From NCBI GenBank assembly GCA_001724265.1, contig MEDY01000119.1, forward strand, positions 1 through 64,000: a stretch of 64,000 nt of DNA, in the 5' to 3' direction. Positions within the stretch are counted from its first letter, which is position 1. Each line of letters begins with the position of its first letter. A program made the position numbers and the translations under genes. Shown piece after piece: positions 2,348-53,300 of this stretch. The DNA comes from Rhizaria sp. SCN 62-66. Its lineage: Eukaryota. Below the pieces are notes generated by a model. It saw only the letters and a list, made by a program, of their open reading frames with translations, was not told where the DNA came from and ran no database searches.

Positions 2348-4533
2348 TCACTTACTCTCCGCAGCAGCGCTGGGCTTGGCGGGCGCGGACCCGTCGCGGA
2401 GCACGTACGCGGGGCTGCCGTCGGCGGGGATGGCCTGGAGCGCGGGCACGAGCCCGTCCCAGTCCTCGAGCATCTTGCGCCCGAGCCGTACCTGCTCCTG
2501 CACCGCCGCGGGCACCTCGGCCGCCGAGGCCGCCACGGGGCTCTCGCGCGCGCCCGCCGCGAAGACGGCGCCGAAGCCGCGCTGCGCGGGCGTGCGCAGC
2601 GGCTGCAGCACGGCCTGCAGGTAGTGCCAATGCTCGCGGGGCGTCAGGTGCGCGCCCACGTCCTCGCAATACACAGCCCCAGCCTGCTCACTATGGACCC
2701 ACTTGGCCTCCTCGAGCGCCACGCGGCCGGGGCGCACGTAAGGCGTGAAGGACATGGCCGCGAACTGCTCCGGCTGCGAGTACTTGGTCTTGGCGTCGGA
2801 CAGCAACTGCCGCAGGCCGTAGTTCTTCGGGTCCGCCCACACGAGCTGAGGCGAGAAGCGCGCCTGCAAGAGCAAAAAAGCAAAAAGCAAGAGATAGGCA
2901 TTATCGAGTTACACATTGGTGAGCATCCAGATAAAATAATCAAACTAGTTTAAATCATGAATATACATGTTATTTTTCATTCAAATATCACAGTATCGTG
3001 TCATTCAATCATAGCACATTGCTTCACTCTGGACGCGGTACGCACCTGTTCGTTGCGGGTGAGGTCGCCCATTTTCTCGCCCGCGCTCAGCGGCTCAGGC
3101 GTGCCGCCCGCCGTGTAGCTGGCGGGCTCCGCGGCGGCCCGCGCGGCGGCCTCGGCGGCGGCCTTCGGCGTCAGCTTGGCCTTAGCCTTGCCGCTCTTGC
3201 GCTCCTCGGCGGCGCGGGCGGCGCGCGCGGCGGCGGCCAGCACGTCGTCGCTAGGCCCGGCCTGCGCGCCCAGTGCAGAGCCCGCGCGGCGGCCCATGGC
3301 GGGCAGCTCGGTCTGCCCCGTGGTGAAAAGGAAGAACTCAGCGGGCGAGACGTTAGCCAGCGTGTAGAGCGAGTCCATCACGTAGCTCGTCAGCCGGTTC
3401 AGGTACGCGAAGTCGAGCGGCTTCTCGAGGAACACGCGCTCCTTGGCCGCAGGCGCGGCGCGCACCGTCTTGATCCAGGGCTCCGGCGCGCGGTACGAGT
3501 AGCGGTACACGAAGCGGTAGAGTGCGCCGTACAGCAGGTCGTAGTCGCCCGTGAGCGCGGCGTACACGGCCTTGTCCATCGTCATGAAGAAGGTCAGCGC
3601 CATGTTCTGCACCTCGCGCATGTAGGCCTCCAGGTGGCGCTCGCGCTCGATGCCGCCGAGCTCGCGCAGCACCTGTCCCACCTTCCACATCATGTTCTCG
3701 TACAGCGGCTGCGTGAGCGCCTTGCCGTAGGCGAGCGGGCGGAACGTCGTCGCGTGCATCACGAGCCACGTGTGCAGCATCAGGCACGCCAGGTAGCCCT
3801 TGAGGTTGCGCTCCACGGCGAAGACCGAGTAGAAGACCTCGCTCTCACAGCGGTCGTAGATGAGCCCCGAGATGCGGAACGCAGAGAGGTTGTGCGACTG
3901 GCCCTCGCCGTAGTACCGCGCCCACGCGCGCAGCCCCGGCACGCGGTGGCGCATCTCGAAGTAGGCCTTGCCGAGGCGCTCAACGTCGCGGTTGAGCTCC
4001 ATGACGCTCGTCAGCGGCAGCTGGCCGGGCGGCGCGGCGTGGTCCAGAACCTCGCCCATACGCCGCGTCTCGCCGTCGTACAGGATGAACGGCGCGGGAT
4101 GCAGAAAGGGCGTCTCGTAGTCCAGCGGCGTGTGCGGGTTCACGCTGGGGTCCTTGTCGGCGCCCGCGGCCGCGACGGCGTTGCGCGTCTGCAGCGCGCC
4201 CGGCAGCGGGTTGGCCAGGGCCTTGGCGGCGGCCAGCTCGCGCTGCGCCTTGGTCGTCTGCAGCCCCAGCAGCGGGGGCAGCGCCAGCGCGGGCAGCACC
4301 GCCATGTCCACGCACGCAATGTCGTGGTAGTACTGCAGGAACGTGTCGCGCTTTGACTTGCCCGGCAGCTTGAACGGCGCGGAAGATGACGCGGCGGACG
4401 CCGACTCGGACGCACTGGTGGAGAAGAGGCAACGCGCCACCGAGGCGGACAACAGGGAGGACGGCGCGGAGGCGGCGGTGCGCAAAAGGCTGCGCTGGGC
4501 GGCGGCGACGCGGTGTGCGGCGGAGCGGAGCAT
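2348..4533 (-). CDS. CBP3: Ubiquinol-cytochrome c reductase (complex III) assembly chaperone Cbp3/UQCC1-like, 2 exons, ~667 aa
   Basis: Exons 4533-3046 and 2863-2348, phase-0 intron 2864-3045 (GTGCGT...TTGCAG), stop TGA. Arg/Ser/Ala-rich presequence-like N-terminus (MLRSAAHRV...). The core FYSVFAVERNLKGYLACLMLHTWLV...QPLYENMM...DKAV...LYGALYRFVY...LTSYV resembles the ubiquinol-cytochrome c chaperone family. Confidence 0.75.
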
Positions 4534-5950: not shown

Positions 5951-6032
5951 ATGGTAGTAGCAAAGTGGTTTACTGCGGGTGTCTTAAGAACATCTGTCCA
6001 TGACGTCGTGGGTTCGAACCCCACCTACCATA
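5951..6032 (+). tRNA. tRNA-Leu (anticodon UAA), intronless, long variable arm
   Basis: Acceptor stem ATGGTAG/CTACCAT with discriminator A; D arm containing AGTGG; anticodon stem GGTGT/ACATC with loop CT-TAA-GA; variable arm TGTC-CAT-GACG; T arm GTGGG-TTCGAAC-CCCAC. No encoded CCA. Confidence 0.93.
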
Positions 6033-8669: not shown

Positions 8670-10180
8670 CACTGGCGGTGGCGGTGGCAGTGGCAGCGCG
8701 AACGCGACGATTGTCAGCGTGACGACTGCGGCGGTGGTGCCGGCGCCCGTGGCGATGCTGCCCGCGCCGGGCGGCGCATTTGTCGCCGTGCTGGCCGCCG
8801 CGGCGCCCGCGGGCGCGCCCCGCACCGTTGTCGTGCAGACGCTGACTTGGGAGGTACGTAATTGAATCAACATAAGACAAATCATCCGTCATTTCTTTTT
8901 TTCATGAAACAATAGCTCAATAGCTCAATGTTTTATAAAATCGATAACTTACTTATATTCACCTTAACTTTGACTAATCACTTCTTTTTTGCGTCTATCC
9001 TTACCTTTATCTCTCTCTACGCACACGCACGCGTGCATGCATGCACAGCCCATCATGACACTGCCCACCGTGCCCCCGCCCGGCTCCGACGCCGACGCCG
9101 ACGCGCACACCGCCATTACCGACGCCACTGGTGCAAGCGGCAATGCGGACGCGTCTTGGGTGACCGCGCGCGCGCTCTCGTACCAGCTCACCGCGACACA
9201 CGGCAGTGGCGCGGGCGCCGCCGCGGCCCCCAGCGCGTTCAGCGTCGCGCTGTGGGCCGACGCGCCGCCGCCGCTGCTGCCGCCCGCCGCCGCGGCCGCC
9301 GCGCGCACGCTCGCGCTCTACGGCGGCGGCGCTGGCGAGGGCCTCGGGGACGAGGACGACGACGACTGGGAGGGCACACAGGTACGGCGATAGAGATTGC
9401 GTGATTACGACCGACGATGAGAGTGAATTACTTAACCGGATTGAAACTATGACTCCTTGATTTTGTCTAAGATCCTTAAATTTAGTGTTCGCTCACAACT
9501 TCACCTTTCTCTTCCACTATCCGCCATTCGACGACACTGTATTGCACTGCACCGCGTCGCACCACTACGTGCCCGCCGCAGTTCCCCGCGCTGCCCCCGG
9601 CCTGGTCCCCGTGCGGCCGCTTCCTCGCCGTGCCGTCCCCCCGCCCCCGCTCGCAGTCGTCCCCGACAGCGCCGTTCGTGGACCTGTGGGACCTGCACCG
9701 CGCCGCCCTCGCCGCGCGACTGCACCTGCGCGCGCCCGCAACCGCGCTCGCCTGGCACCCGCCCGCCGCCGCCGCTGCCGCCGCGGGACAGCAGCAGCAG
9801 CAAGGGGCGAGGCTGGCGCTCGCGGCGGGCGAGGCCGAGATCTACTTCTGGTGCGTCGCCTTGCTGCATTGAATGACAATTGCGATAATTTCAATAGTTA
9901 ATCCAACAATAAGATGAGTCACACTCGATTGTGTTTATTTTTTAAATATCTCACAAGTTAAACTTTATTTGTTTGTATCTTCTCTTGCATATCTTCGCGC
10001 AGGTCTCCCGAGGCCGCCTCCGTCGTCGCGCTACCCCCCTCTGCCAGTCACGGCCACGGCCCCGGCGACGGCAGCGGGGGCGCGGTGTGTGCGCGCGCGC
10101 TGGCGTGGGGCCGTGCGGGCGCGCGGCTGCTCGTCGCGGACCCCGAGAGCCGGGCCTGTCTTCTGGGCTTCCTCGACTGA
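7249..10180 (+). CDS. WRAP73: WD40 protein WRAP73/WDR8 (centrosome/cilium), 6 exons, ~686 aa
   Basis: Exons 7249-7359, 7533-7958, 8110-8853, 9049-9381, 9582-9850 and 10003-10180; all introns GT...CAG with frame preserved; stop TGA. Motifs MDFSD, LWSPDSTLLL...SLADPDWTAKI, WAPDSRHVL, WSPCGRFLA, VDLWDL, LAWHP, IYFWSP and terminal CLLGFLD follow the order I recall for WRAP73. Confidence 0.85.
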
Positions 10181-18248: not shown

Positions 18249-18460
18249 ACAACGGAGAAATTGATATTTAGTATGATGCGATCGTTGATTGCGCGAGAAA
18301 TTTAAAATTAATAGATTAACATTGATATTATTTTGTTTTCCTAATTTTTTATTTCTCTCTTTATTGATCCTCCTAGCCTTTCAGTCACTTCTTGATTCGA
18401 CCGAGAGACCGAGAGTTGAGAGTTCGAGACGAGAAAGCAAGACACAAAACACCACCATTG

Positions 18461-22225: not shown

Positions 22226-25200
22226 TCAATTGAGGGGGAATGCGATCTTATAAAGCCTCCGTGCATGTGATAACAGCCACTGAACTCGAGACCTTCCACT
22301 GGCAGGCTCGCTTGGAGATGTCACGTAAAGCGACAGCGGGATGTTAATGCACATCATAATGAAGAGTGTAGAGACAGCAATTAAAGGTGACGGGTTAAGA
22401 ACGCTGTGTAACCACAACCGGGGACTCATATAAGACCATATAGCAGTCACGTGTTTGACGAACTCTTCAGCAGCGGTGCCCCGATCCCGCACAAATACAA
22501 GGTCAACAATATGATCGCGACTGGACGCCAACACCACCACCATGCCCGCCCAGTCGCCTCGCAGCAGATGGCCCAATAGCTTCAAGAAGAATAAAGCGAC
22601 GGATGCACCCAGATGTAGCGGCCACGCACACGGTTTGTAGATGGAACTGAGTTGGAGCAACTGAGGGATTGGCGCCGCGCCTTCAAGTGCAGTTGCAAGC
22701 GCGCCGCGCAGCGACAAAGTTGCGAGCAAGACCCAGACCGAAAGGACAAACGAGCCCACGTCGCGACACTCGGCGGCTCCTTGCATCGTGGCCCGGCGCA
22801 GCCACTGCCCCTGAGGCGTCTGCCCGACGAACATCAGCACGAACGCGATTAACGCCGTCGCCGCGCTCACGGCCAGCGTGGGCACCAGCGCGGCCGTGAC
22901 TGAGAGCGACGCCCAGCCCAACACCTTGGCGTGCAGGAGCAGCAGCGACGCGCCAATCGACACCAGCATAAACCACACGTTGTAGGCTTCTGTGACAAAG
23001 AGGCAGCTCGTGTCCGGTTCACCGACGCGCTTCCCAGGCGCCAGGGCTTCACGCCCGGCCAGCAGGCCCAGCGACATGTAGGCCACGGCGAAGACGCGCG
23101 CAGGCGTTGGGGTGAGGTGCCCCGACGCCAGCATGAGCTGCCCAAGCGCGACTGCACAGTATACCGTGGTCAGCAGCGATATGAGCAAGTGCCGCGCGTC
23201 AGGCTGCAGGTTGGCATAGAGTGTGAGTGTCAACGGCCCCATCAGCGGCCGCGCACGCTCGGTTGCCAGCGCGTGCAGAGCCGCCACGCGCACAGGCGCA
23301 AGTGCCGCCGCGAGTGTAGGCGTCCTCACGTGCGCAGTGTTGGCGTCCAGCGCGCTCGCCCCGGGCGGACCCAGGTGCGCGAGCAGCGCGGCCTCGTCCG
23401 CCGGCGCAACCATTGCGCGCCGCAGCGCGTAGACGCCTAAGTACATGGCGGGAGCCACGACGCCCACCACCGCCGCCGCGGCCGCAGCAGCCCACACGAG
23501 AGGCCACGGGAGAAAGTTCATAAGCGCACCTATGGCCGGAACAAAAACCATAAACTGAACGGGCCTCTCAAACGTATGCAGAAGCCATCGCTCGGGGTCA
23601 AAGCGCGGGTTGCTAAGCGCGTCACATGAGGTAAAAAGACTGGATACGCGCGAGAGCGCGCGCCGCGGGCCAAACACCGCCGCGCCAGGCATGACGTACG
23701 TGACCATGGCCTCCACGCCACCAGGCGCGAATTCAGCGCCGCCCGCGCCGGCGCGCGCCTGCACCTGCAGCTGCACCGCGCGGCGGGTCGCCTCGTCGGT
23801 CTCGGCGGCGCCTGTGACCGCGCGCGCAACGATGAACGGCGCGGCCGCACAAGCCAGCGGGCCACGTCCGCCGCCGCCGCCGCCGCGTGTGGTGCAGGGC
23901 ACGACCGTGGTCACGCGCGTCTCTAGGTGCGGCAGCCGGGGCACCCACAGCAGCGGCGCTGCGGCCGCGCCCACGCAGGCAGCGGACCTCAGCTCCAGCC
24001 CGCGCTGCGGCAACTGCGCCGCCGCCGCGCTGTTAGCCGCGCGGTCCGCGTCGTCACTGTGAGAGTCCAGCGCCGACGCCGACGCTGGCGCAGACACAGG
24101 CACAGGCGCAACCGCGCGCGCGTCAAGCGCGGCGTGCAGGCCGGACGGGCCCGCGCACGCGGCGAGCACCGGCCACGGCGCCGTACCCGGGCAGCCCAGC
24201 GGGCCCAGGCCCGGGCCCGCGGCCGCGGCGGCGGACGCTGCGGCGTCCTGAAGCGAGCGCGCAGCGGCCGCCACCGCCCGCGCGAGCGCAGCGCGGCGCC
24301 TCGCAGCAGCGCGGCGCGCGGCGGCTGGGGACAATGGGCGTCCCTTTGGCCTGGCGTAGGCAGCGTACACGTCATCGCTGTTGCTATCATCACTGCTGCT
24401 ATCATCGCTGCTGTTCGAGTCCGAGCCGTGGTCATCGCCGTCGCCGTCGCCGTCGCTGCCACGTTCGTCGTCGCTGGGGCCGTTGCGGTTGCTGCGACTG
24501 GGACTGTCGCTGCTGTCATTATCATCCCCGCTGCCGCTAGCGCCACTGCTTCCTCTGCTGGTGCTGTCGCCGCCGCTGCTGCTGGCCGCAAGCTCGTCGG
24601 CCTGCAGCAGCACGCCGCGCGTCTGGGCGGCGCGACCGAGCGTCACGCGCCCGTCCAGCACGCTCACCCAAGGCTGCCACAGCGCGGCCGCGGCGTCGCG
24701 CGCCGCCGCCCCGCGCAGCCGCTCCAGCGCGCACAACCGCTCCTGCGGCGGGCCTGCGCCCCACAGCCGCGCGGCCGCGCTGCTCGCGCCCGCGCCCGCG
24801 CCAGTGCCCGTGCCGGGGGTTGTCGCGGCGGCGACGGCTGCGCAGACCCAGGCCGGCAGCGCGACCTCCGCGCCATCATCACTGCTGCTGCTGCTGCTGC
24901 TGTCTTCGGAATCGTAGCCGTCGTCGTCGTCGTCGTCGTCGTCATCGTCGTCGTCGTCGTCATCATCATCGTCGTCGTCGTTTTCCGGCCGGGGCACAAG
25001 CCCCAGTCCCTCCTCCTCCTCACCCTGCAGGTTTGGCGGCGCCGGCCCCAGCTGCAAGTGCCGGCGCGCCGCGACGGCGGCCTCGCGCTGCGCCACGCGC
25101 CGCAGCGCCTCCCAGCGCCACTCTCGGAAGCGCACGATGGACCGCTCGCGCCGCAGCCGCGCAAGCCGCCGCTGCTGCGCGCACAGTAAAAGGGGAAGCA

Positions 25201-28200
25201 CTGCGAGCGCCGCGCTCACTTCCATGTCTTCGAGCTCGCTGCCGCTGCTGCTGGCGCGGCTGCAGTCTGAGTCGGCAGTCCTGCCACCAGGCCGGCTGCC
25301 GCTGAGGCGGGCGCCCCTCGCTCCGCCCGCTCGGGCCGCAGCTCCTGCGGCCTCGCCTTCGCTGCTCTCGCCGCTGCTGCTGCTGCTGCTGTTGCTGCTG
25401 CTACTGTTGCTGCTGCTGCTTCTGCTGTCCTCGTCACTGCCACCGCCACTGCCGCTGCCGCTATCGGCGCTGTCAGTGCTGCTGACGCGGGCGGGCCTGC
25501 GGGTCACCGCGCGCGCGAGGTAGTGGCGCGCCGTCGCCGGCCGCGGTGCCCTCACGAGCCCTGCGTCCACAGCGCGCGCCAGGAGCGGCGGCGCCGGCGC
25601 CGGCAAAGGAACACCTGCATGCGCGGGCGCAAGAGCCGGCGCGAGCGCGTGGGGCGCGACGTCGGCAAACAGCGTCTCCAGCACGCCGGGCAGCGACGGC
25701 GCGGCGTGGATGTAGCGCCGCTGGCCCGCGCGCGCGGCGCTGTGACGCAGCCCCCAACGGTCGTCGCCGCGCCGCGCCCGCCGCGCCGCGCGCGCCCGCC
25801 GCGCCGCAGCTCGCTGTCGCGCTGAGCCAATCAGAGCGCGACCGTGAGTGTCATCATCATCGTCGTCATCATCATCATCGTCGTCGTCGTCGTCGGTGCT
25901 TTCATCATCGTCGCTATTCTCCCCGTCGCTGCCACTGTCACGATCGATGCCATTGCCGACGTCATCGCCACTACCACTACTACTGCTGCTGCTGCTGCTG
26001 CTGTCAGTGTCGCTCGAATTTCCGGCAAGCCTTTGACCATCATCATCATCGTCATCGTCATCATCATCATCATCGTCATCGTCGTCGTCGTCGTCGTCGC
26101 CGCTCCCTCGCCTGGCGCCATTCGCAGCGTGCAGGTCGAGCGGGCTCTGCTCCTGCAGCAGCGCGCCCAGCGCCGCGGCGGGTGACAGCACCGCATCGCT
26201 CGCAGGCGCGGCCCGCAGGCGCGCCAGCGCGGCGGCCTCGCTCCGCGTCAGCAGCGACCGGCCCCGCGGCGCTGCCTTGCTGTCGCCGTCGCCGTCGCCG
26301 CCGTCGGCGTCAGCGTAAGGGTCCGCGTCCGCGTCTGCGTCACCATCGCGGGCGCTCTGGCTTCCATCTCGCTCAACGCGGCCAGCAGTCGCGTTGCGCG
26401 TGTCTCCAGTAGGTGCGTCTCCAGCAACGGAAGCAGCAGCAGCAGTCGCAGAAAAGAGAGGAAGGTAAAGCTCCGCCGCGCTCGCAGTGACGGTGACGCC
26501 GCCGCCCATCGCCTTCGCTCTCCGCGCGCGCGCTGGCGTCCTCCCTTCGGCGCAGCGCCGCAGCAGTGCGCGTTCAAAGTCCTCTTCCAGCGGCGCGCCG
26601 CGCGCAATGGTGGCGAGCTCGGCCGTAGTCATGGCACCGAACCGGATCAGCGGCAGCAGGTCGTGCAGCTCGAGGCGCACCAGCGCGGGGTCCGTGTCGT
26701 CGAGCCCGTACGCGCGTAGGCGGAAGCGGCCCCAGCGCACCACGGCCTGGAACAGCGCGAACTCGCTCCCGCAGTTGAGCTCGCTGGAGCGCAGGAAGCG
26801 CTTCAGCGCGGCGCGCGGCAGCGCCAGGAACAGCGGCTGCGCCATCGCCGTCCCGAAGCAAGCGAGCGCGAACGAGTGGTTGTTCTGCAGCGCAGCGCGG
26901 ACAGCAGCGGCCTCCGCAGCCGAGTGCGGGCACTCAAAAGCCAGCTCACAGGTCTCGTGCTGGGTCTCGCGCCAAGTGGCCCAGTCGAGCGCTCTCCGCA
27001 TAAGCCGCACTAGCCGCTTCAGGTGCCGGCCCCCACCTGGCGCGGCGCTAAAGTTACCGCCGTCGCCGTCGTCATCGTCGTCGTCGTCATCGTCGTCGTC
27101 GTCATCGTCATCGCTGTCGCTGACGAGTCGAGTGCGGGCGTCGCGGTGGATTTGGCGCGTGTAGGGACTGTGGCGCAGCGCGGGCAGCGTCAGCGCAGGG
27201 AACGACCGCGGTGGCCGCAGGGCTGCCAAGACGGCCCTCGTCGCGTCCGCCGCGGCGACAAGCGACTCTGCGGTCGCTAGCGCCTCTGCAGTCGACTGCA
27301 CCTCCGCGAGCTGCGTGTCTGGGGTCAACTGCGCGGCCCTGGCGCGCAACGCAGAGGCTCTTCTGATAAGGCTGGCAGGGGCGGCGACAGCTGTGTCATC
27401 GCCGCTTCCAGAGTCAGAGTTAGCTTCAGAGTCAGAGTCACCGTCGTCGCTGTCGTCGCCGTCGTCGCTGTCAGCGCGGCTGTCCGAGTCAGCGTCAGCG
27501 TCGACCTCGGTCACGGCGGCCACGGCCACGGCGGCCGCGGCGGCCGGATCCAGTGAGCCAACCAGCGCGGCCAACACGACGTCAGCCCCGCGGCCCACCG
27601 CCGTCGCCGCCGCGATCTCCGCTGCCGCCGAGGACGCGGCGGGCGCAGGGTCTCGCAGCGCGGGCGCGTACAGGTCCCGGTCGTAGTCGTCGCAGCGTGT
27701 ACAGACGCTGCAGCCCTTTTCGTTGTTGACATCGGCAACGCAAAAGCAGCCCTTGGCCGCGCCCACGCGCGCGCTGCACACGGGACACGAGCCGCACGCG
27801 TAGAGCCGCGCGCGGCGCGCCGGCGGCGGCTGCTCGCCTCGCGCGGCGGCCTCCGCAGCCGCGGCCGCCCATGTCACGGGCCGCCGCGCCGGGTTGGGGG
27901 CCATTGCCGGCGCGGGGCCGACAAACGCGGGGGCAATAAGCGCGGCGACCGGTACTGCGGCGGGACACGCGCTGCCGGCGTCGCTGCTGCAGCTGCAGCG
28001 ATGGAAACTGTCCGACGCAGCAGCAAGCGTGGAGTCGTCGTCGTCGCCGCTGTCCTCGTCACTGCCGCTGTCACTGTTGGCGTCGCTGTCGTCACTGTAG
28101 TCGTCGCTGTCGTCGTCGCCGTCAGTGTCGCTGTCGGAGACCAGGGCGAGCAGCAGCAGCGGGGCCGGGGGGCCCAGCGCCGGCGCCACGAGCGCGGCGA

Positions 28201-29449
28201 GAGGCGCCGCGGGGCCGGGCAACCCCAGCTGTGGCAGCCGCGCCTCCGCCTCTGCCTCAGCCTCAGCATACGCTGCAGTCGCACTTGGGTTTGCGTTCAT
28301 CTTGACGTTGGCATTGGCCGCAGAACCAAGACCGAGACCGAGCCTGAGCGCCAGCGCCGGCAAGAACCCCAGGCCGGAAGCCAGGGCGCTCGCTGCGCAC
28401 CGCACAATCCCCAGCGCGCCCCCGCCGTCGCCGTCTTTGACGACGCTGCCGTTGGAGCCGGGGCCAGGGCCGGGGCGGGGGCTCGCGAGAGCGCCGGCTG
28501 GGGCGCCGGCGGGAGCGACAAAATCGAGCAGCACGGTGTCGGGGTGCAGCGCCAGCAGCCGCAGCGCGCGGAGGGCCGCGGCAGGCAGCGCCGCATCGGT
28601 CAGCGCGCGCAGGTAGAGAGACAGCGCTAGCCCGCCGCGGGCGCTAGCGGCGCGCGCGGGCGCGAACGGCGCCGGCAGCAGCTGCGCGGGCAAAGGGGCG
28701 GGAGCTGTCGCCGGAGCGGGTCCGGCCGAGAGGAAGACGCGGGCGAGCTCGCTGTCGCTCATGTTGTCAACGATATTCGTGTTCGCCACAGCGCTTACGG
28801 TCGCAGCCGTATCGACCCGGTCCTGTCCTCGTCCCCATCTCTGTCCCCCGTGCGCCTGTCCTTTCTTCGGCTTTCGTCGCCACCCACGGCGACCCTGACT
28901 CAGACTCTGCTGCTGTCGCTGCCGCTACGCCGCGGCCGCGCGCGTCCAGCGGTAGAGCGTCTCGTATGCGTGGCTGCGCACGTGCGCGGGGTCCGTCAGC
29001 AGCGCGAGCCCCGGCGCGGCGCCCACAGCGGCGCCCGCCGCGCCGCTCTCCGCCCCCGTCGGTGCCGTCTCGGCGGCAAGCGCGCGCACCGTGTTGAGCG
29101 TGGGGCTTGTGGCCGCGCTGGGGAAGGAGAGCCGCATGCACACCTCGGCGGCGTCCGTGCGCCGGCCCGTCTTCGCGTCGCTGCATGACGAGGGCGCAAG
29201 GCCGGGGATGCTGTACAGCGAGTCGGGCTGTATCGTCGACGCCGCAGTGTAGAGCAGCGGCGCCGCAGGGACGAGGTCTGAGGACCAGGAGCCGCGCTCG
29301 GTGGAGGGTGGCGAGCGCGGGGAAGCCGGGAGTGCCACAGCGGCGGTGTCGAACAGTGACGGGGCATCTGACGTGTATGTTGGGTCAGAAGGCCACTCAA
29401 TAGCCTCTATAACCGTAATTTCAGGTTCAAGATGCAGGAGCTCGTCCAT
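22226..29449 (-). CDS. BACK-domain protein with Cys-rich segment, acidic tracts and multi-pass C-terminal membrane region, ~2407 aa if the in-frame TAG at 28925-28927 is read through
   Basis: Track ORFs 28925..29581 and 22226..28789 share a frame and are separated only by one TAG. BACK-like motif FLALPRAALKRFLRSSELNCGSEFALFQAVVRW...LLPLIRFGAMTTAEL (~26600-26860). Many hydrophobic helices at ~22290-23560. ATG at 29449, terminal TGA. Confidence 0.7.
26039..26098 (-). repeat. GAC/GAT trinucleotide tract encoding poly-Asp (similar tracts near 24920-24980, 25850-25890 and 27070-27110)
   Basis: Runs of tcg/tca units on the + strand, in frame as Asp in the minus-strand gene. Confidence 0.85.
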
Positions 29450-29929
29450 GCTGCGAGTTGGGGGTGAGGCAAGGAGGTGCCTGGTCGTCTGAAGATTTAG
29501 TTTTTCGCGATTGTCTGATGTGGAGGCAGAAGTAAGAACGTGAGGATCACAAATTGAGAAGAAAAATGACAAATATTTCATAAAAATTCGGCGTTAACAT
29601 CACTAACACGATTCTACGATCATTTCGGTGCAAGAAATGAACTTGAAAGTTGCGCGATTGATACGTCACCCTCCTGTCACTAGTCAACAAAAGCCATTTG
29701 TGGTGACACCGGGGTCTTTGGGTTATTTTCATTGATATAACGGACAGTTTGTATTTGTACAGCGGTTTAAGACGCATTTGAAAGTTTCATCAATAGATCT
29801 ATATAACTTCACACAATAGACACGAATCGCGCCTGTACACTGGCCCGCATCCCACAAACACTCCACACATCAATGTCACTCTCGACGATACGATATTCGT
29901 AACAACAGGGAGTCCAGACACAGTTGCCC

Positions 29930-31903
29930 TCATTTCCCCTCGCCCTCGGCCTTACCCCTACCCTTACCCTTGCCCACGTCCGTAGCCTGCTCGGCCGCGG
30001 CGGCGGCGTTGACGAGCGCGACGGCGCCGGGCGGAATGGACTGGAGCCTGCGCACGGCGCTCACCTGCTCGATCACGAACAGCGCCGTCACGAAGCTGAA
30101 GAGCACCGTCTGGAAGAAGAAGAAGTTGGCGTTGCCGGCCGCGCGCTCGGTCCAGAGCGACCACATAAAGGCGCCGACGCAGGCGCTTTGCGCGAGCGCG
30201 AAGAGCAGCGCGTGCGGGCGCCGCGCGCGGTGGGCGAGCAGCGGCAGATGCACCACCGCGCCGCAGAGCGCCACGGCCGTGTCCACCACCGTCGGGTACG
30301 GCTTGAACAGTGACGCCGCGGCGGCCGACGCCCAGAGCGCGAAGAGTGGCCAGCGTGGGAGGCGCGCGGCGAGCATGGCGGCGTAGACGGCAGCGTGGCC
30401 GTGGAACACGGCCGTAAAGAAGCCGCGGAAGCGCGGGAAGACCTGCAGTGCGAAGTACCACCACAGCCCAATCGAGGGCGTGGCGTCGCCAGCCACCAGC
30501 AGCGCGCCCCAGGCGCCGTCAGCCCAGCCCAGCCGCTGCAGCAGCCAGCGTGCGGCCGTCAGCCAGAGCGGCTCGCCGGGCGCGGGCGCGGGCAGCGCGG
30601 CCGCTGCGGCCGCCACGGGCGTCGTCAGTGCGCAGCACAACAGCGCACCCAGCGCGAGCGCGGCGCAGTAGACGGCCGCGAAAGCCAGGACCGCGGCGCG
30701 GGCGCGCGCGCGCGCGAGCGCGGCGGAGTCTGCGGCGGCGGCGCGGCGCAGCGGGGCGGCGGCGGCGAGCGCGCGGGCAACGAGCGCGAGCGCGGGCGCA
30801 GCGACCCACAGCGAGGGCTCCAGCAGCGTCGTGAGCGCGGCGAGCAGAGCGGCGACGCGCGGTCGCGCGCGTGAGGCGGCAAGCGCGGCGAGAGCGAGCA
30901 GCGCGTGGGGGACCACCGCCGTGGACACGGCCGCGGCGGCCAGCACCGAGAAGGGGTTCAGCAGCGGCAGCGCGAACACGAGCGAGGGCAGCCACGGCGG
31001 GGGCGCCACCAGACGCAGCTCCGACTCGGAGTCAACAGAGTCGGCGCCGACGCTCCGAGACTGCGCCGACGCCGCTAAATCGGCTGCAGCACTTGTGCCG
31101 GCCTTGGCGCAAATCGTAGTATCAGGAGCAGTATTGCGCTGGTTGTCGCCATCCCAGTCCTGCGCGCAGGCGGCGAAAGCCCGGACGGAGGCGGGCACCG
31201 GCACCGGCCGCGCGGCGTAGTAGCCCGTGAGCGCCGCCAGCGCGAGCGCGAGCGCCAGCTCGAAGGCGAACACGGTCGCCAGGTAGGGTAGCAGCGGCAG
31301 CGCGGCGCCGGGGCCCGCGAGCGGGACCGTGGGCAGCGTCGCGAGCGCGGGCGCGGGCGCGGCGGCGAGATGCGTGCTCGCGGCGTTGCCGGCCTCGAAG
31401 CGGCGCAGCAGCGTCGAGAGCGCGCGCGCGAAGTGGAAGGGCGCGGCGTACAGCGGTGAGTGGTGCAGCACGCCGCCCGCAAACGGCGAGCCTGCGGCGG
31501 CCGAGCCCGAGAGCGCGGCGGCCGAGGCCGCGTGGAAGCCCTCGTGGAGGCGCGCGACCGCGGTCGTGGGGCCCGCGAGCTCGACGCGGCCGCGCAGCGC
31601 GGCCGACAGCGGCGACAGCAGCAGCGCCACGCGCAGCGCGAGCGCCAGCAGTGACACCAGCAGCACGGTGCGCAGCGGCGGCAGGCTCGCAGTAAGCGGC
31701 GGCAGCGCGCGGAAGTGGGGCGGCGCCGCAGGCACGGGCACCGACACTGCAGCGGCGGGACGCTTCTGTTCAGCAGCGGACGCGGGCGCGGGCGCGGGCG
31801 TGGACGCAGAGACAGACTGTTGCGTAGCGGATGCAGCTGTGGCTGGAGTGGGGTCGACATTGCTGCGACGCATGCGTAGCGTCGCGGCCTCGTCAGAGCT
31901 CAT
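29930..31903 (-). CDS. PIGU: GPI transamidase subunit PIG-U/GAB1, 657 aa
   Basis: RVELAGPTT...RLHEG, SPFAGGVLHHSPL, LLNPFSVLA, TPSIGLWWYFALQVF, LFKPYPTVVD and AGNANFFF motifs; multi-pass hydrophobic; stop TGA. Confidence 0.92.
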   Translation of the reverse strand: MSSDEAATLRMRRSNVDPTPATAASATQQSVSASTPAPAPASAAEQKRPAAAVSVPVPAAPPHFRALPPLTASLPPLRTVLLVSLLALALRVALLLSPLSAALRGRVELAGPTTAVARLHEGFHAASAAALSGSAAAGSPFAGGVLHHSPLYAAPFHFARALSTLLRRFEAGNAASTHLAAAPAPALATLPTVPLAGPGAALPLLPYLATVFAFELALALALAALTGYYAARPVPVPASVRAFAACAQDWDGDNQRNTAPDTTICAKAGTSAAADLAASAQSRSVGADSVDSESELRLVAPPPWLPSLVFALPLLNPFSVLAAAAVSTAVVPHALLALAALAASRARPRVAALLAALTTLLEPSLWVAAPALALVARALAAAAPLRRAAAADSAALARARARAAVLAFAAVYCAALALGALLCCALTTPVAAAAAALPAPAPGEPLWLTAARWLLQRLGWADGAWGALLVAGDATPSIGLWWYFALQVFPRFRGFFTAVFHGHAAVYAAMLAARLPRWPLFALWASAAAASLFKPYPTVVDTAVALCGAVVHLPLLAHRARRPHALLFALAQSACVGAFMWSLWTERAAGNANFFFFQTVLFSFVTALFVIEQVSAVRRLQSIPPGAVALVNAAAAAEQATDVGKGKGRGKAEGEGK

Positions 31904-32393: not shown

Positions 32394-34476
32394 TCAGAGC
32401 TTGGCGCCGAGCTTCTTCTTACTGGCAGCGGCGGCGGTGCGCTCCGCGATGACGGCGCGCGCGGCGGCGGTCTCCTGCGGCGTCTCGTAGGCCGCCCACG
32501 TGGGCTGCTGAGTGAGCGAGAGCACGCGCTCCCACGTCCGACCCTGCGGGTTGAGCGCAGAGGGTGAGGACGCCACGATGAGCTCCACAGGCGCCAGCAC
32601 CGAGCGGTTGTTCACGATTGCGGAGGAGAAGGCGGTGTAGCCGGCCATGACGGCGTGCACGGCGTTGTGCGCGATCGACAGGCAGTGGATCGAGTCCGCC
32701 GCCGAGGCCGGGATCGAGCGGATCATGTACGACGGGTCCACGACTGCAGACGGGAAAAGATGGTAGAAAAATGAGGATAGATTGAGATCATGTGAGCATA
32801 TATGAAGAAATTCATCCAAAAACAAATAACATTTCCCAAATACCAAACAAAAATAGAGACAACATATTGTTGTACGTACAGCGGATGGTGGACTCGATCT
32901 GGAAGGACTTAAAGTAGCTGGTGATGGCACTCTTGAGCAGCTCGCCGACCGAGTCGCCGGTCTGCGCCTCGACGGCGCCGTCGCCCGCGGCCGTGGCGGC
33001 CGTGTCGGCGCCGTCGCTGCCGCGCAGCGCCTCGGCGCTGGCCGCGGCGGCCTCCGCGGCGCCCGCGCGCAGAGGCAGCCCGGCGCCCTCCGCGACGACG
33101 ATGACGGCGTAGCCCTGGCGGCGCACGAGCTGGCGCACGTACTCGAGCACGCCCGTGCGGCCGTAGAGCCGGAAGGCCAGCTCGGGGATCAGACACAGAT
33201 CGGCGTCGCGCGCGGCCAGCACGGCGTGGGCTGCGATGTAGCCCGCGTGCTTGCCCATCAGCTGCACGATGCCGATGCCGTTGGGCGCGCACATCGACTC
33301 GACCTGGACAGACTCGATCGCGCGCGCGGCGACCTGCACCGCCGTCTCAAAGCCGAACGAGTTGTCGATAACGCCCACGTCGTTGTCGAGCGAGTTGGGG
33401 ATGCAGCACAGCGCGAGGCGCAGCGCCGGCCGGCGCGCGGCGGCGCGATGCAACTGCGCGGCCGCGCGGTGCGTGCCGTCGCCGCCGACGATATAGAGCT
33501 GCGTAACGCCGTAGACCTCGCAGGCGTTGAGGATGCGCTCGGGCTGGAAGCCGCCCTTGGCCGTGCCCAGGATGGAGCCGCCGCGGCCCGAGATGCCGCG
33601 CACCGAGTCGGGCGTGAGCGCTTCCCAGGGCTGCGACTCGCGCTCCCAGAAGCCGCGGAAGCCGTCGCGGATGCCGTACACGGTGTCAACGCCGTAGTTG
33701 TAGTACAGGCAGTTAAAGAGCTCCTCGACGACGTCGTTGTGACCCGGGCACAGCGAGCCGCACGTCACGATGGCCGCGCGCACCGTCGGCGCGTCGTACA
33801 CGATCTCCGCGCGCGGGCCCGCGCGCACGAAGCCCTTGGCGGCCTGGCTGCCGGCGCGCTGCGGGCCGGCGCCGGCGCCGCGGACAATGTCGAGCAGCAC
33901 GACCTCGTCGTCGCCGATAAACTGCGAGTACCGGATGCGCGATCCGCTCGCGGCCTCAGCGGCGGCGGCGGCGGCGGTGGCGGGCTCACTGTGTGCGGCC
34001 ACAGCAGCGGCAGCGGCAGTGCTGGCCGCGGCAGTGACGGCGGCGGCGGCCGCGGCGTCGCCGGCAATGATGGTGCCGGTGACGGGGTCGGCGGCGTCGC
34101 TGTTGTTGGTCAGCGCGCTGATGGCCTTGGCCATGGAGAGCGCGGAGCGCGCCTTCTTCGGGCTGCCCCCTGCGCCGCCCGCGGTGGCCGAGGCCGCGGC
34201 CGCGGCGGCGTCGGCGCCCGATGCGGCGTCGTCCACGGGCCCGCCGAAGGCGATCTTGGTGCGCGCAAAGACGTTGGGGTAGGTCTTGAGCGCCATGTCG
34301 GGGTAGAGATCTTGCATGCGCGGGACGTGGGCGACTGAGATCTCGGAGATGACGGCGCGCGTGGGCACGAACAGCCCGCTCTTGTCGCCGGACACGGCCG
34401 AGCGCTGGCGGGACGTAAACAGCGTCTCCGCGGCCTTCGGGTTCGCCTGGGAGCCCGGCACGGCGGTTGAATCCAT
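32394..34476 (-). CDS. PFK: 6-phosphofructokinase, plant/protist group X (ATP-type GGDG motif), 2 exons, ~648 aa, with divergent active-site motifs
   Basis: Exons 34476-32880 and 32743-32394; intron 32744-32879 (GTACGT...CTGCAG) restores STIR-F-VDPSYMIRS. Motifs FVRAGPR, AAIVTCGSLCPG, GGSILGT, VGGDGTHR, DNDV..ID.SFGFETAV, DLCLIPE and VVAEGAG; stop TGA. Confidence 0.92.
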
Positions 34477-36175: not shown

Positions 36176-39100
36176 TCACCAGTTGGCCCCCGTGCGAGAG
36201 GCCACGAAGGCCCGCGCGCCCGCCCCCGGACTGGCCGGCCCGTCGCTCTGCTGCCACTGCTGCTGTTGCTGTTGCTGCGTCCCAGCTGCTCCGGGCGAGC
36301 CAGGGGCTGTGGCATCGCTAATAGATGCCAGCAACGCCTCTGCACCGGCACCGCTATTGTAGTTGTAGTTATTGTTGCTGCTGCTGTGGCCGCCCCAGGA
36401 GGGCCGGGTGGCCGCCGCGCGCGCGGACAGGAGCAGTGCAGCCGCGCCGCCCGCGCCGGGGCCCGCGCCTGGCAGCGGCGGCGGCGACGGGGAGCGGGAG
36501 TACGACGGTGCGGTGCTACTATAGGGCGCGGCGCTACTATAGGGCGCGGCGCCGCTATAGGGCGCAACGCTAGTGTAAGGCGCGGCGGGGGCGGCGAAAG
36601 GCGCCGCTGCGTAGCTGTGCGGGGGACTCGGCGCGGGCGACGAAGACTGCGGCGGCGACGGCGACTGAGGGGGCGAGTAGCTCTTCTGACGGCCCCAGTC
36701 CTGACGGCCCCAGTCGTTCGCTGCGCTGTGCCCGTGACTCGGCTTGGGCCGCTGCGGCTGCCACAGCTCATCCAGATTCGCAACAGGAGGCGGCGGCGAG
36801 TCATCGCGCTCACGCTCGCGGTCATGACCACGCTCACGATCACGGTCACGGTCATGCTCACGACCACCGCGCTGCTCCCGCTGGCGCAGGCCCTGGCCTT
36901 GGCGCTCGCGCTCGAAGTCGCGCTGCTCGCGGGCGCGCTGCTGCTGCTGAAGCTGCTCCCGGTAACTCATGCCCGCGCTGCCCTTGCCCAGCGAGCTCTT
37001 GTTGCCGTAGTAGCGCGCGCTATCGTCGGAGCCAGCGCCCGAGTCGGAGCCGGAGGGGCCGAGACTTGCGTCGGCGTCGCGCGCGCGGCTGCGAGCGCTG
37101 TAGATGCGGCCCGTCTCGTCCCCGCTGCCGTGGCTCTGCTCGGCAGGCTGGCTGGCGCCCTTGCTGTGGGCGGTGTTGTTGCTGTTGCTGTTGCTCTGTG
37201 GCGCGCGCCAGGAGAGGTCGCCCAGCCCCGGCAGCGCGCCGCCTGCGGCGTTGTTGCCGCGGTAGGTCGCGCGGGGGCCCGCGCCCAGCAGCATCTGCGG
37301 CAGCCGGCCCAGCTCCGGTCCCGGCGCGACCGTGGTATCCAGCCCCGCCGTCGCCGCCGTCGCGTCGTCGCCGAGGTCGTCGCCAAGGCCGTTGTCGACG
37401 TGGTAGCCGTTGTAGTCGTCGCCGTGACTCGTGGCGGCGGCCTGGTCGTCCTTGCTGACGTCCCAGCCCCAGCGCGGCACCGCGGGGCCCTCCGCGTTGC
37501 TCAGGTCGTGGCTCACGTAGGCGCTCGCGTTAGGGCCCGCAACCGCACCGGGGACCTGTACAGGGCTGCCGCGGCCGCCGACAGGGCCCGCGGCGGCCGC
37601 AGCGGGAGCCAGCCAGCGCGACAGCGCCGCGCGCGCGCTCTCGGGCAGCCCTGCGTCGAGAGCGGGGGCGACGTCGCCGAAGTGGCTCGCGCGCTGCGGG
37701 GTGCCGGCGCTGGAGAAGGCGCCCCCCGCGCTCGTGGCGGCGATGTAGGCCGCCGACGGCGAGTGCGGCTGCGGCTGCTGCGGGTAGAGCCGGCAGGGGC
37801 TGGGCTCGGCCGAGCCGTTGGCGTTGCGACCGTGGGCGTCGGGGAGGTCGGGCAGGCCGGAGGAGTCTTCGCCGTCGCTCCTGCTGCTGCTGATGTTGAC
37901 AGGCGCAAGAATAGCAGCGGCACTGCTTTTGTTGCTGTCGCCAACCGCGGCCGCAGCGGAGGCAGGTTGCGCGAAGCCGGCCTTGGCAGCGGCGAGCCTT
38001 CCCGCGGCGGCCTCGATCGCACGGACCAGCCGCCGCACCTCAGGGTCGGCCAGCTCGGCGGAAGTCAGGCGGCCCCACAGCGCACCCGACGCCACAGCCG
38101 CAGCCTCCGCGTCCGTGCCCGCGACGCCCCTGCCCTTGCCCTTGCCGTGGCCGTGGCCGCGACCGTGGGCGTGGGCGTAACCGTGGGTGCGAGCGGGCTG
38201 CGGCGAGGACGAAGGGGACTTGGACTCCTGCTCCTGCGCTTGCCCCGTCGCTCTCTGGCTCTGGCTCTGGCTCTGAGCAGCAGTGGCGCCGGCCGCGGCG
38301 GCGGTGACGGGCGTGGCGAGCACGGCCGCCGCGGGAGTGCTGAAAGGCGAGCCGCCCGTGGGGACCGTGCGGCGTTGCGGCGTCGTCGGCGCAGCGCCAG
38401 AGACGGGGCCCGGGGCCGGCGCGGACGCAGCGAGGCCCAGCTGCTGCTGCTGCTGCTGCTGTTGAGCCGAGTACTGGTACTGGTCGGGCTGCAGCGTCGC
38501 CCACAGGCGCGAGCCGCCGGGATTGAGGCCCTGTGCCTGCGCCTGCTGCTACTGCTGCTGCTGCTGACTGTCCGCGGCGTGGTCGTGGTCAGCGGGCAGT
38601 GCAAGCATGCCGGCGCGCCAGCCACTGGCGCTGGTGCCAGCGCCAGCGCTAGTGCCAACAGTCGTGGTCGCGGCGGCGTTGGCGTCACCAAGAGCTGCGG
38701 CCGCGGCGACGGGCAAGAGGGCAGCAGCGCCTGCAGCAGCAGCAGGTGAAGCGGTGGCGGGAGGCACGACTTCTTGCAGCGCCTGCAGCAGCGCGCGCAA
38801 CAGCGCCAGACTCTGTCCCTCAGCAGCAGCGCCAGCAGCAGCCGTGCCGCTAACAGTCGCAGGAGCCGCCGCCGCCGTCGCAGCGGACTCTGCCTCCGCC
38901 TCGGCCTCAGCAGCTTGCATCGAGCGCTCCAGGACCGCGGGCGGCACCGGTCCTGCCGTCGCGTTGAGGGCGGAGACGTCGTAATTGTTGGCATTGACGC
39001 TGTTGACGCTGACCGCGGAGATGTTAAGCTCTACAGGCGCTGCCGCTGCCGCAGGCGCAGCGCCAGCCGCGTCCGCCAGCGGCGCGTGCTCGGGCGGGGA

Positions 39101-48868: not shown

Positions 48869-50304
48869 GCAAGCAAGCAAGCAGGCAGGCAAGCACATGC
48901 GCACGCATGTGAGATGCGACCGGCAGTATGGCTGCTGGGACCATTGGCATTGCTGAGAGCTTACAACAACACACGTCGTCGACGGAATGGATGTTCACTC
49001 TACGTGAAACATTTTTGTTATTTCACTTCAATGCTCTTTGTGCTTTTACCCTCCTATCTAATGTTTTCAGTCATGACATGTGTGCCGAGATTGGCGCACA
49101 ACGTTTGCCGCAGTTACGGTAGATTTTGTTCTTCTTACTTTTTTCGTTTTCGTTGTCCGTTTTTGTTGTCCGTAAATAAGTTATTTTAGTCGTGACCGGC
49201 GAGTCGGAAAAGCATATAAGTTCGAGCTGTCTTTCGTCTTATTTATCTCTTTTTCCTTCGTTTTGTTTGTTCGCCTTTGAATTTGTCTTTCGTTTATTTT
49301 TTAAATGCGTGTGTGATCCGTTCTTGCATGCGTGTTTTGCTGCGTCGGTGTCTGTGCCTCTGCCTCTGTCTCTGTCACACCGCAAAGGACTCACTTCCCG
49401 ACCCCTCAGCGACGCAGCCAGCTCGTCGGTCACGCCACGCGCACTCAGCACTTGCACTCCGTCAGCCAGTTCGTTGTTGGCATCGCACGCCGCGCAAAAG
49501 CAGCAGCGCAGCGCTTGCGCTGCTGGGCGGCCTGCGCGGGACCCCGTGACCCCTGCCAGGCCCGTGCCCGCTTTCCCCCCGTTGCTTTCCCCCCCTTGCC
49601 TATCTCGCACTGCTCCGGTCTTGTTGCTGCGGCGACAGCCACCAGATAAACTTCTTGTTTGCATGTGTGCGAACACATGTGATCGGAGCGGAAGACGGGG
49701 GGTATAGACGGGCAATGTTTCTATTATTCAAATTTTAGCATTTAATTCATTTACATTATGTATAATACAACTCAAAATTACTATATAAACTTATTATCCG
49801 ACTGTACATGTCATCTTTCGTGGTGCTTTTGTTTGTGGTGCTCGTATTCCACTCTTTCCTGACGCCCCGCCGTTTCTGCCCGATGATGAGCATGCAGCTT
49901 GAAAGTGATATATCTTGCCGCTTTCATTTCCAGCTTAAATGTTAGTTTTTAATTAACACGAGACAGACAGTTTAGCATCTTGGCATAGCGTTAATTTTTA
50001 TGATGTCGGATTCCTGACACTTTTATTTTCAGTTAAAGCACCGACTGTCTGGGGTCACTGTGATTTTGCGTTGATTCTCTATTCTTGCCTCCGACTAAGG
50101 AGCCTTTAAGGATTTTTGAAACATGTTTGCCTTGATAACTTAGTAAACCTTTATTTGTATCGATTACACATGCTCACATTTCTGCTTACATCTTCCCACG
50201 CTCACAGGCTCGATTAGTAGCCAGGAAAATCGCATAAGACTTGAGAACACATTGAATTTGAACCAATCTCGACCCCCTAGTCCTTCGAACCCCGGCCAAG
50301 GTTC

Positions 50305-53300
50305 ATGCGCTCTACCGCGAAGCAGACTGCCCGCGTAAGTCAATCATTAAAACCACATCCCATTCTTCCTACTGCATTTCTTCATTTGCAGCAGCGTCTC
50401 ACAACTTGCTTTCCTCACCTCCCGTTCTCTATGTCTTTCCTACTTTCTTCCTCTCGTTCTCATCCCCGCGTTTATCCCTGCATTTGCAGCCATCGGCCAC
50501 GGGCGGCGGGCTCCACAGCTCGTCATCGGCGCTGCCATATGTTATCAAGGACATAAGCTTCGGCGCGCCCGACTCCCCCGCGCCCCCGCCGCCCGCGCCC
50601 CGCCGCGGCGGCCCCTCGTTCGCGCTCACAGCCCCCGCGGGCCCCGCCGGCCCCGCGGGCGCCTCTGCACTGCAGAAGCAGTCCTCGCGCATTGCGGAGC
50701 CGCCCAGCACGTACGTGGGCAGCGGGCCCGTGCGCCGCAAGCCCGCGCCACCGACAGTCCCGCTCCACGCCTGGGCCGCCACCGGCGCCGCCACGCCCCC
50801 CGCCGCCTCGGCCGCCGCCGCCGCCGCCGCCGCGGTGATGTCGGGCGCCACCTTTGTCCTCGTGCCGCCCCGCGCCGGGCAGCAGCAGCCTGACTCTGCT
50901 TCGGTGCCCTACGGCGCGCCCCGCTTCGGCAGCACCGGCCCACCGCCGCCGCTGCCGCCCGCGCAGCTGGCTCCGCTCGCGCGCACGCCTTCCCAACAGC
51001 AGCAGCAGCAGTACGCGGCGCGGCCGCCATCGCCGCGGCACACGCACCCCGCGACGGCGACGGAGCGCGCCGCGGGCGCAGGCGGGGCGCCGCTGCGCAT
51101 CCCGCTCTCGGCCGCGGCCTTCTTCTCGATGCAGTTCCCGTTTCCGTCCACCAGCAAGGCCGCCACCGCGGCGTCGCCCGCGGGCGGCGGCAGCGGTAGC
51201 GGCGGCGAGAGCCCCAGCGCGATCGACCTGCTGCTGCTGCAGACGGGCTCAGCGTCGTCCGTGTCGCAGCTCTCGCCCGTGGACGTGACCGTGCGTCTGC
51301 AGCAACTGCGTGAGGCCTACTTCCACCTCGCCAACCGGCACGCGCGCGGTCACCGCTGCTCGGGCTGCGAGAGCGGCGCGCACGGGCCTGGCGCGCACGG
51401 GCCCGGCGGCCGGCCCGCCTTCGACACGACTCCGCGAAAGTTTCGCTCCGACGGCGGCGAGCCCGACTCAACATCGAGCGTCGTGTCGGGCCCCTTGGGC
51501 GGCGGCCGCGGCGGGGCCAGCGCGGCAGCGAGCTCGCGCGCGCGCGACGCCGTGGGCGCGAGCGACATGAGCGCGCTTAAGTCGGGCATGGTGCTTTTCT
51601 TCACTCAGCAGCAGCAGCACCGCGCGGCCGCCCGCCGCGCTGCGGCGCGCGAGGCGCAGCGCGGCGGCGCAGGCGGGCCGCTGGGCCAGGGCCGCGCCAG
51701 CGAGACGCGTCTGCGGGCCCTCGAGGGCGGTGCGCTTGTCGAGGAGGTCCCCGACCAGCCCGCCGACGCGGGCAACATGCGCTTTACCTTCCAGATCAAG
51801 CCGCGCAAGCCTCTGGCCGCGGCCGCGACGGCGGCGACGACTGGCGTGACGCCGGCGCTGGGCGCGGGCCCCGGCAGCGCGGCGGCCACGAGCAGTACCG
51901 CGACGACGGCGGCGACGGCGGCGCAGGGGCTGCGCGCGGGCCCGGCGCGGCGCGTGATTCTGTCGCAGTCCGCGGCGTCCAAGGCGGAGACGGACGCGGC
52001 GATCCTGGAGAAGCAGGTCATCGCGCACCTCAACGCGCCGACGTGCTATCTCTTTGGCCCGCCCGGCATGCTTGACAGCAGGGACGTCGCCGCTTTTATG
52101 GCTGGCGTGCGCTCCGCGGCGCAGGCACTTGCGGGGAACCGGCAGTACCTCGCCATGGCGCAGCGGCGCGCGCGCGAGCAGGCGCGGCGCGACCGTATGC
52201 TCAAGCGCGGCAACGGCGAGGGCGACGGCGCCGACGACAGCGACTTTGGCGGCTTCGAGCGCGACCCCGATGACTCGCTATCGACCGCGGCGGGCGGCGG
52301 CGGCGGCAACAGCGCTGTGGACGTGAACAAGGTGCTGCGCGCCGTGTACGCCGACACGCTGCAGCACTTGCAGACCTTCGGCGCTGCGGGCCGCGTCTTC
52401 AAGTCGGTCCCCGAGGCCGTGCGCGCGCTGCGGGCGCTTCTGGTGGCGCCCGGCGCGGCGCGCATGCAGCTGCTGCAGGCGCTGGCGCCGATCCAAGCAC
52501 AGCTTGTGTACTCGCGGCGCAACCGGCCGCGGCCCGCGCAGATGGGCGGCGCGGCGGCCGCGCCCGTGGGCGAGATCGACCTTTACGCGCCGCGGCAGCT
52601 GCCGTCGCTCAGCGAGGTCGAGCGCGTGCTCGACGCCGCGCAGACGGGCGAGCAGACGTTGGACATCATGCGCAAGTTCGCCGCGCTGGGACGCCGCTTC
52701 CTGTCGCCCGAAGACCTCGTCCGTGCTGTGCGCGCTGAGGCCGAGACGACGGAGGAGATGAAGCGGCAGGTCTTCCTCTTCCTCAACAACCGCAAGTGCG
52801 AGCTGCTGGACGAGGCGGCCGTGCGCAAGGCGCGGCTGGCGGCGGTGCCGCACGTGGACGTGTACTACCGCCCCGCGGACCCGCTGTTGGCGGCGCGCAA
52901 CCCGCTGACGGCGGAGACGCTGCACCAGCCCGTGCTGGTGACGCGCGAGGAGGTCGATCTGGTCTTCGAGCGCGGCCAGGCCGGTGCGCACACGATCATC
53001 CACCTCGACCAACTGGCGCGCGAGCTGGCCGTGAGCATGATCGCGCGCGAGACGGGCAAGATCGTGCCCGCCGTCGCGCGCAAGACAAGCATCACGCTCA
53101 TGGGACGCCAGCTTGAGCTTGCCGCGCCCCTCAGCAACAGCAATAACGGCAGCAACAACTCTATCCCGGACGGCAGCAGCGGCGCCGTCCCTGGGACGGC
53201 TCGTCGCAGCAGCACCTCAGGCGCTTTGACCGACGAGGCTCAGTCGCAGCAGCCGCAATCGCCGGCCGAGCCGCCCGGCGCGTCGCCCGTGCGCCACTGG

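Follow-up and report, generated by a model that had tools for sequence, protein, structure and literature searches.

An in-frame TAG that may be read as glutamine joins a conserved N-terminal segment to a BACK-domain reading frame in a GC-rich eukaryotic contig

Very few lineages, namely Iotanema, a single rhizarian and certain phyllopharyngean ciliates, are reported to have nuclear codes in which UAG alone has been reassigned (PMC5304391, PMC11687900). In Iotanema spirale, UAG encodes glutamine while UAA and UGA are stops, and 204 in-frame UAG codons occur in 126 genes, none of them terminating (PMC5304391); two phyllopharyngean ciliates are described with the same assignment of UAG to glutamine and of UAA and UGA to termination (PMC11687900). 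Among the papers that our literature search covered, a case of the kind described below was met in known lineages only.

The window, by which we mean the whole 64,000-nucleotide stretch of DNA analysed here, is made up of GC-rich coding DNA (GC3 0.8-0.93) and AT-rich spacers, and its genes are eukaryotic, with PIG-U, CLPTM1, phosphofructokinase and a CLC channel among them. Its introns are AT-rich and about 135-200 nt long, with GTRCGK donors and YCAG acceptors (Table 1); the donor motif is depleted across the window (139 found, 210 expected). Twelve gene models totalling 16,605 codons contain 722 CAG, 82 CAA and two in-frame TAG codons, and at two TAGs in 16,605 codons UAG is not a widespread sense codon here. 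Among nine credible gene ends, a small sample, six are TGA, three are TAA and none is TAG; the TGAs at 3001 and 32812 lie in introns, and the phosphofructokinase gene ends at the TGA at 32394. Elsewhere, an ORF of over 4387 aa has 192 open, GC-rich codons (50262-50837, plus strand) ahead of its first ATG (50838), and probably starts in truth upstream of 50838 or at a start that is spliced on.

An earlier note had proposed that an in-frame TAG followed by a C, at 28925-28927 on the minus strand, joins a 174-aa segment to a large ORF with a BACK domain and a membrane region. Re-reading the minus strand bore out the letters, the position and the C directly 3′ of the codon, and the frame beyond the TAG does continue without a further stop into the 2178-codon ORF, which becomes 2187 aa when its start is taken at GTG 28789. 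With the TAG read as glutamine, 29449 to 22226 is a single ORF of 2407 sense codons containing one odd codon. From the sequence, we see an even chance that 29449-22226 is one gene whose TAG is translated, probably as glutamine; we infer translation of the TAG, glutamine as its residue and the behaviour of UAG across the organism alike.

Table 1 Features of the window discussed in the text; joined protein and joined reading refer to 29449-22226 with the TAG read as an amino acid.
Feature	Position	Strand	Remarks
tRNA-Leu(TAA)	5951-6032	+	Sole RNA gene found in window
Introns	2866-3045 (-), 8854-9048 (+), 9382-9581 (+), 9851-10002 (+), ~32745-32879 (-)		AT-rich, GTRCGK donors, YCAG acceptors
N-terminal segment, 174 codons from ATG 29449	28928..29449	-	GC1/2/3 0.67/0.64/0.82, CAI 0.64
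Conserved block, residues 97-173 (CMRLSFPSAA ... LLTDPAHVRSHAYETLY)	28931..29161	-	Common to P0004 and fused P0006
In-frame TAG	28925..28927	-	Codon 175 of joined reading; GCG GCC GCG GCG TAG CGG CAG CGA CAG CAG CAG
Linker, 54 stop-free codons	28763..28924	-	R/Q/G-rich, purine-rich, T-poor
2178-codon ORF, ATG 28762 to TGA 22226	22226..28762	-	Long Ala/Asp/Ser low-complexity stretches, BACK, hydrophobic C-terminal region
HPDTVLLDFV motif, residues 303-311 of joined protein	28517..28543	-	Common to P0005, P0006, P0007
BACK domain (Pfam PF07707), residues 615-681 of 2178-aa ORF	26720..26920	-	28.5 bits, cut-off 20.9
Putative membrane domain, residues 1984-2368	22346..23500	-	About 7 hydrophobic segments, Kyte-Doolittle scan
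Second in-frame TAG, within (CAG)5 TAG (CAG)2	38549..38551	-	One frame 41113 to 36176; low-complexity protein

The TAG at 28925-28927 is identical in four assemblies or contigs: the window, the X3 contig from a run of another study (no differences over 27800-31031), the X4 contig (no differences over 28675-29085) and metagenome contig L001 (0 mismatches in 3293 nt, 27269-30561). Its recurrence in X3, X4 and L001 led us to reject assembly error as its source. No alternative letter at this position was listed in the contigs of the four runs compared, contigs being a form of data that hides rare variants such as a minor CAG allele. X4 is probably a DNA run, because it also covers AT-rich spacers; in the poly(A) RNA run X5 no piece over 28673-30781 was among the contig pieces listed, and X5 is silent on one versus two transcripts. 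DNA of the window is found in bioreactor, wastewater and activated-sludge runs, 13 of the 15 listed holding part of it and 4 holding half or more. Over 33150-33661, in the phosphofructokinase gene, the X4 and X5 contigs show many differences from the window, mostly multiples of three apart, as if the samples contained a related strain or species.

A search with residues 1-329 of the joined protein against 1.84 billion representative proteins found two: P0003, a gene call of 70 aa identical in sequence and terminating at the TAG, and P0004, a 193-aa relative with 49% identity over residues 97-173 (E 1e-15), whose ORF, on a 4.5-kb contig, extends 26 residues past the shared block through a Q-rich tail. 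The linker with the 787 N-terminal residues of the large ORF retrieved three proteins (P0005, P0006 and P0007) among 8000 scored candidates. P0006, of 985 aa and present on seven contigs of up to 165 kb, has all three elements, N-terminal block, HPDT and BACK, in a single ORF: its residues 35-138 match residues 60-166 of the window protein (E 4e-8), its HPDTALLPYV matches HPDTVLLDFV (E values for this motif run from 3e-5 to 0.03, in small two-sequence searches), and its BACK domain shows 78% identity across 106 residues, the range for P0006 and P0005 being 78-83%. The linker has no residue-by-residue alignment between P0006 and the window. As its ORF reads, at least one relative has the N-terminal block on the same polypeptide as the BACK protein; colinearity with P0006 thus upholds the proposal that the 174-aa segment forms a unit with the BACK/membrane ORF, and it excludes a chance juxtaposition of two unrelated genes. 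Because P0006 encodes the block, HPDT and BACK in one ORF, the two parts of the window locus were once one gene, and what lies past the TAG and its linker, which is not itself coding-like, is a conserved coding extension, a 2178-codon ORF with BACK that is colinear with P0006.

The gene calls of other relatives break near the site of the TAG, P0004 stopping at 193 aa, P0005 (689 aa) beginning 24 residues before HPDT and P0007 (1360 aa) beginning 47 residues before it. None of 6537 candidates was a homolog of the 174-aa segment at similar length, and P0004 searched back recovered itself alone (one of 3175). Scans for the relatives' DNA gave L001 alone among 595 metagenome stretches, identical to the window; one match among 60 in genome contigs, L002, an unrelated bacterial BACK-like sequence; and none among 31 in viral contigs. 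On contigs exceeding 160 kb, the gene calls of P0005 (689 aa) and P0006 (985 aa) end soon after BACK, yet the window protein and P0007 continue past BACK to the membrane domain; judged from these sequences, the P0005 and P0006 ORFs must be interrupted after BACK by an intron or an in-frame stop.

We found no Pfam family in the N-terminal segment or its conserved block. BTB and Kelch domains were absent from the whole ORF at E up to 0.01, and at E up to 1 from its first 100 and last 624 residues and from P0005, P0006 and P0007. P0007 has a hydrophobic C-terminus matching that of the window protein, and a comparison of the last 624 aa with the ESM Atlas pointed weakly to Tmemb_185A clusters (scores 0.81-0.82). 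An AlphaFold2 model of residues 1-329, built from five sequences, had a mean pLDDT of 46.5, its sole confident element being a helix at residues 154-188 that runs through the TAG position; it is too weak to use.

The other TAG, at 38549, joins an 854-codon part to a 790-codon part and is clearly an in-frame TAG in coding sequence. The sequence downstream of it is open and coding-like, with GC3 of 0.82-0.87; in the first 418 codons GC3 is 0.87 and CAI 0.72, and the antisense ORF has a CAI of 0.49. An X5 RNA contig covers 36905-37560, reaching 266 nt upstream of the first ATG of the 790-codon part. This TAG is read from the window assembly alone, no covering piece being among the contig pieces listed for the other runs. 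At position 39000, in the upstream part of the same gene, X4 and X5 carry a 3-nt insertion (TGT), an in-frame length variant.

Both TAGs stand where glutamine is common. At 28925-28927 there are at least four Gln codons within seven codons either side, which is true of 4.4% of coding positions; at 38549 there are nine, and at least seven is true of 1.8%. The Q-rich context and the second TAG inside a CAG run are compatible with the suggestion that the TAG encodes glutamine. Both sites lie in Q-rich, unconserved low-complexity tracts, so that neither the amino acid nor translation is put to the test by them.

The 2178-codon ORF is intact and conserved and must therefore be translated by some route. 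We favour translation through the TAG because two TAG-interrupted genes, otherwise intact and conserved or expressed, occur among about 11, and because there are no TAG terminators, the contexts are of CAG type and spacer signals are missing. The ribosome would read UAG as an amino acid, probably glutamine, and UAA and UGA would terminate; decoding could rely on a tRNA-Gln that recognises UAG or on UAG being a weak stop in general. The predicted product would begin with the conserved N-terminal block and continue through a disordered linker rich in R, Q and G, HPDT, BACK and long acidic low-complexity regions to a multi-pass membrane domain at its C-terminus. If UAG does encode glutamine, the scarce TAGs may first have arisen as C-to-T changes within CAG tracts of disordered regions. 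More tentatively, and at less than even chance, we propose that UAG means glutamine, with UAA and UGA as stops, in an uncultured, non-ciliate eukaryote that lives in activated sludge and bioreactors and has a GC-rich genome with introns, and that this meaning had an independent, apparently early-stage origin.

The earlier note had called the roughly 165 nt after the TAG coding-like, a description that codon usage does not support: the linker has an overall GC of 0.63 and a GC1/2/3 of 0.70/0.56/0.63, lacking the GC3 peak of coding sequence in this window, and the CAI of 0.337 is at the 0.3rd percentile of coding windows (below 99.7% of 1572) and at the 75th percentile of intergenic ones. Four CGA and four GGA codons, both rare here, are found in the linker. 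An open frame is by itself weak evidence for coding in a stretch so poor in T (17 T in 162 nt); a second frame contains one stop (28769) and the third two (28902 and 28797). Real coding sequence can have an equally low CAI, as do several 5′ ends and the last ~190 codons of the big ORF; the latter (22229-22795, minus strand) have GC of 0.46-0.6 and CAI of 0.30-0.42, yet are an open, hydrophobic coding region.

The companion claim, that the linker is unlike true spacers, held up. Its GC compares with 0.44 in the true spacer at 29450-29929 and 0.37 in the 150 nt before ATG 18461, part of a genuine tandem spacer (18249-18460, 212 nt, AT-rich), and all other spacers in the window are AT-rich and at least 212 nt long. 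The 150 nt after the TAG have a GC of 0.65, and those after TAG 38549 of 0.73, against 0.29-0.53 at ten other ORF ends examined, two of which (3001 and 32812) turned out to be intronic. Of the 5-mers typical of genuine 3′ flanks, the linker has one among the 25 most frequent.

These properties bear on what we see as the best-surviving alternative, unlikely but carrying appreciable weight, in which the TAG is a working stop. What was ancestrally one gene would then have been divided, through a CAG-to-TAG change or a fission, so that it now yields a protein of 174 aa and another of 2178 aa with a start of its own. The larger protein would be made from ATG 28762, which has an A at position -3, through an internal transcription start or reinitiation, and the linker, with its non-coding look in CAI and GC3, would be untranslated. 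The ORF of P0004 likewise ends in the linker zone, the starts of P0005 and P0007 shortly before HPDT suit a separate second protein, and a Q-rich context is likewise where a CAG-to-TAG nonsense change would arise; because TAG is very rare, the codon usage of the linker poor and the relatives' calls broken nearby, a split gene stays alive as an explanation. It has to contend with a linker that, at 162 nt, is too short to hold a promoter and contains neither an AT-rich spacer nor 3′-flank-type sequence. In eukaryotes, ribosomes reinitiate inefficiently once they have translated an ORF of 174 codons, which is at odds with an intact, conserved ORF downstream. A split would also require a second nonsense-carrying gene, that of TAG 38549, among about 11, and the same TAG in the window, X3, X4 and L001 speaks against it.

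We give distinctly less credence to site-specific programmed readthrough under the standard code, whereby the TAG would end a short 174-aa isoform and some ribosomes would go on to make the long fusion. A C at +4 makes termination less efficient, near-cognate tRNA-Gln is able to decode UAG, and the short product would match P0004 in length. That a C follows both TAGs, as the earlier note had remarked, is true, but with only two sites the coincidence carries no evidential weight. RNA structure after either TAG was no better than in shuffled sequence (z -0.08 and +1.11), the CARYYA-type context of readthrough is absent from both sites, and two unrelated genes within 64 kb would each need a signal of their own. 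If readthrough were partial, moreover, the conserved 2178-aa part would be poorly expressed.

An intron across the TAG was rejected, the site having no GTRCGK donor, YCAG acceptor or pyrimidine tract. No GTRCGK donor occurs on the minus strand between 28406 and 32873, and the sole GT upstream of the TAG that would spare the conserved block is GCG|TAG itself, a poor donor with poor acceptors. Removal or change of the TAG in RNA, by an unusual intron or by editing, or its being an assembly or allele artefact, is very improbable: introns of ~135-200 nt are common in the window and the GT of GCG|TAG has AGs at frame-keeping distances of 90, 135 and 171 nt (by eye), but GTAGCG is unlike GTRCGK, the candidate acceptors lack a pyrimidine tract or YCAG, the linker is not AT-rich, the only GT...AG pairs near TAG 38549 (20, 23 or 26 nt) break the frame, and X3, X4 and L001 carry the same TAG with no other letter listed there.

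Were the TAG a true stop, the locus would be an ordinary gene split of little wider interest. Translation of the TAG, the reading that we prefer, would add a further UAG-only case, unusual in that the genome is GC-rich and not ciliate-like and in that TAG is extremely rare in it. It would capture an early stage of a stop-to-sense change, with polyQ tracts as tolerant entry points and the loss of TAG terminators coming first. Gene callers cut such long genes at TAG, as in the 70-aa fragment P0003, so proteins of this clade would be mis-annotated in metagenome catalogues.

The window protein shares with BTB/BACK-domain proteins a BACK domain above the Pfam cut-off, as do P0005 and P0006, and differs from them in that BACK is joined to a multi-pass hydrophobic C-terminus and very long low-complexity inserts, without BTB or Kelch. 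With programmed readthrough in eukaryotes and their viruses, it has in common that a C follows the UAG, that the frame continues open and conserved past the codon and that glutamine is the expected near-cognate insertion; unlike cases of that kind, it lacks downstream RNA structure and the hexanucleotide context, and its extension is of 2233 codons with the main conserved domains instead of a short C-terminal add-on. Ciliates and fornicates differ from the present genome, which is GC-rich, intron-bearing and in long contigs, and is neither ciliate-like nor fornicate-like. Compared with the count given for Iotanema, TAG here is about 100-fold sparser (2 in 16,605 codons versus 204 in 126 genes), and both TAGs lie in low-complexity tracts, not at conserved glutamine positions. 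The likeness to the code of Iotanema is that TAG here stands in-frame where glutamine would fit, serves as terminator in none of the nine gene ends, and leaves TAA and TGA to end the genes.
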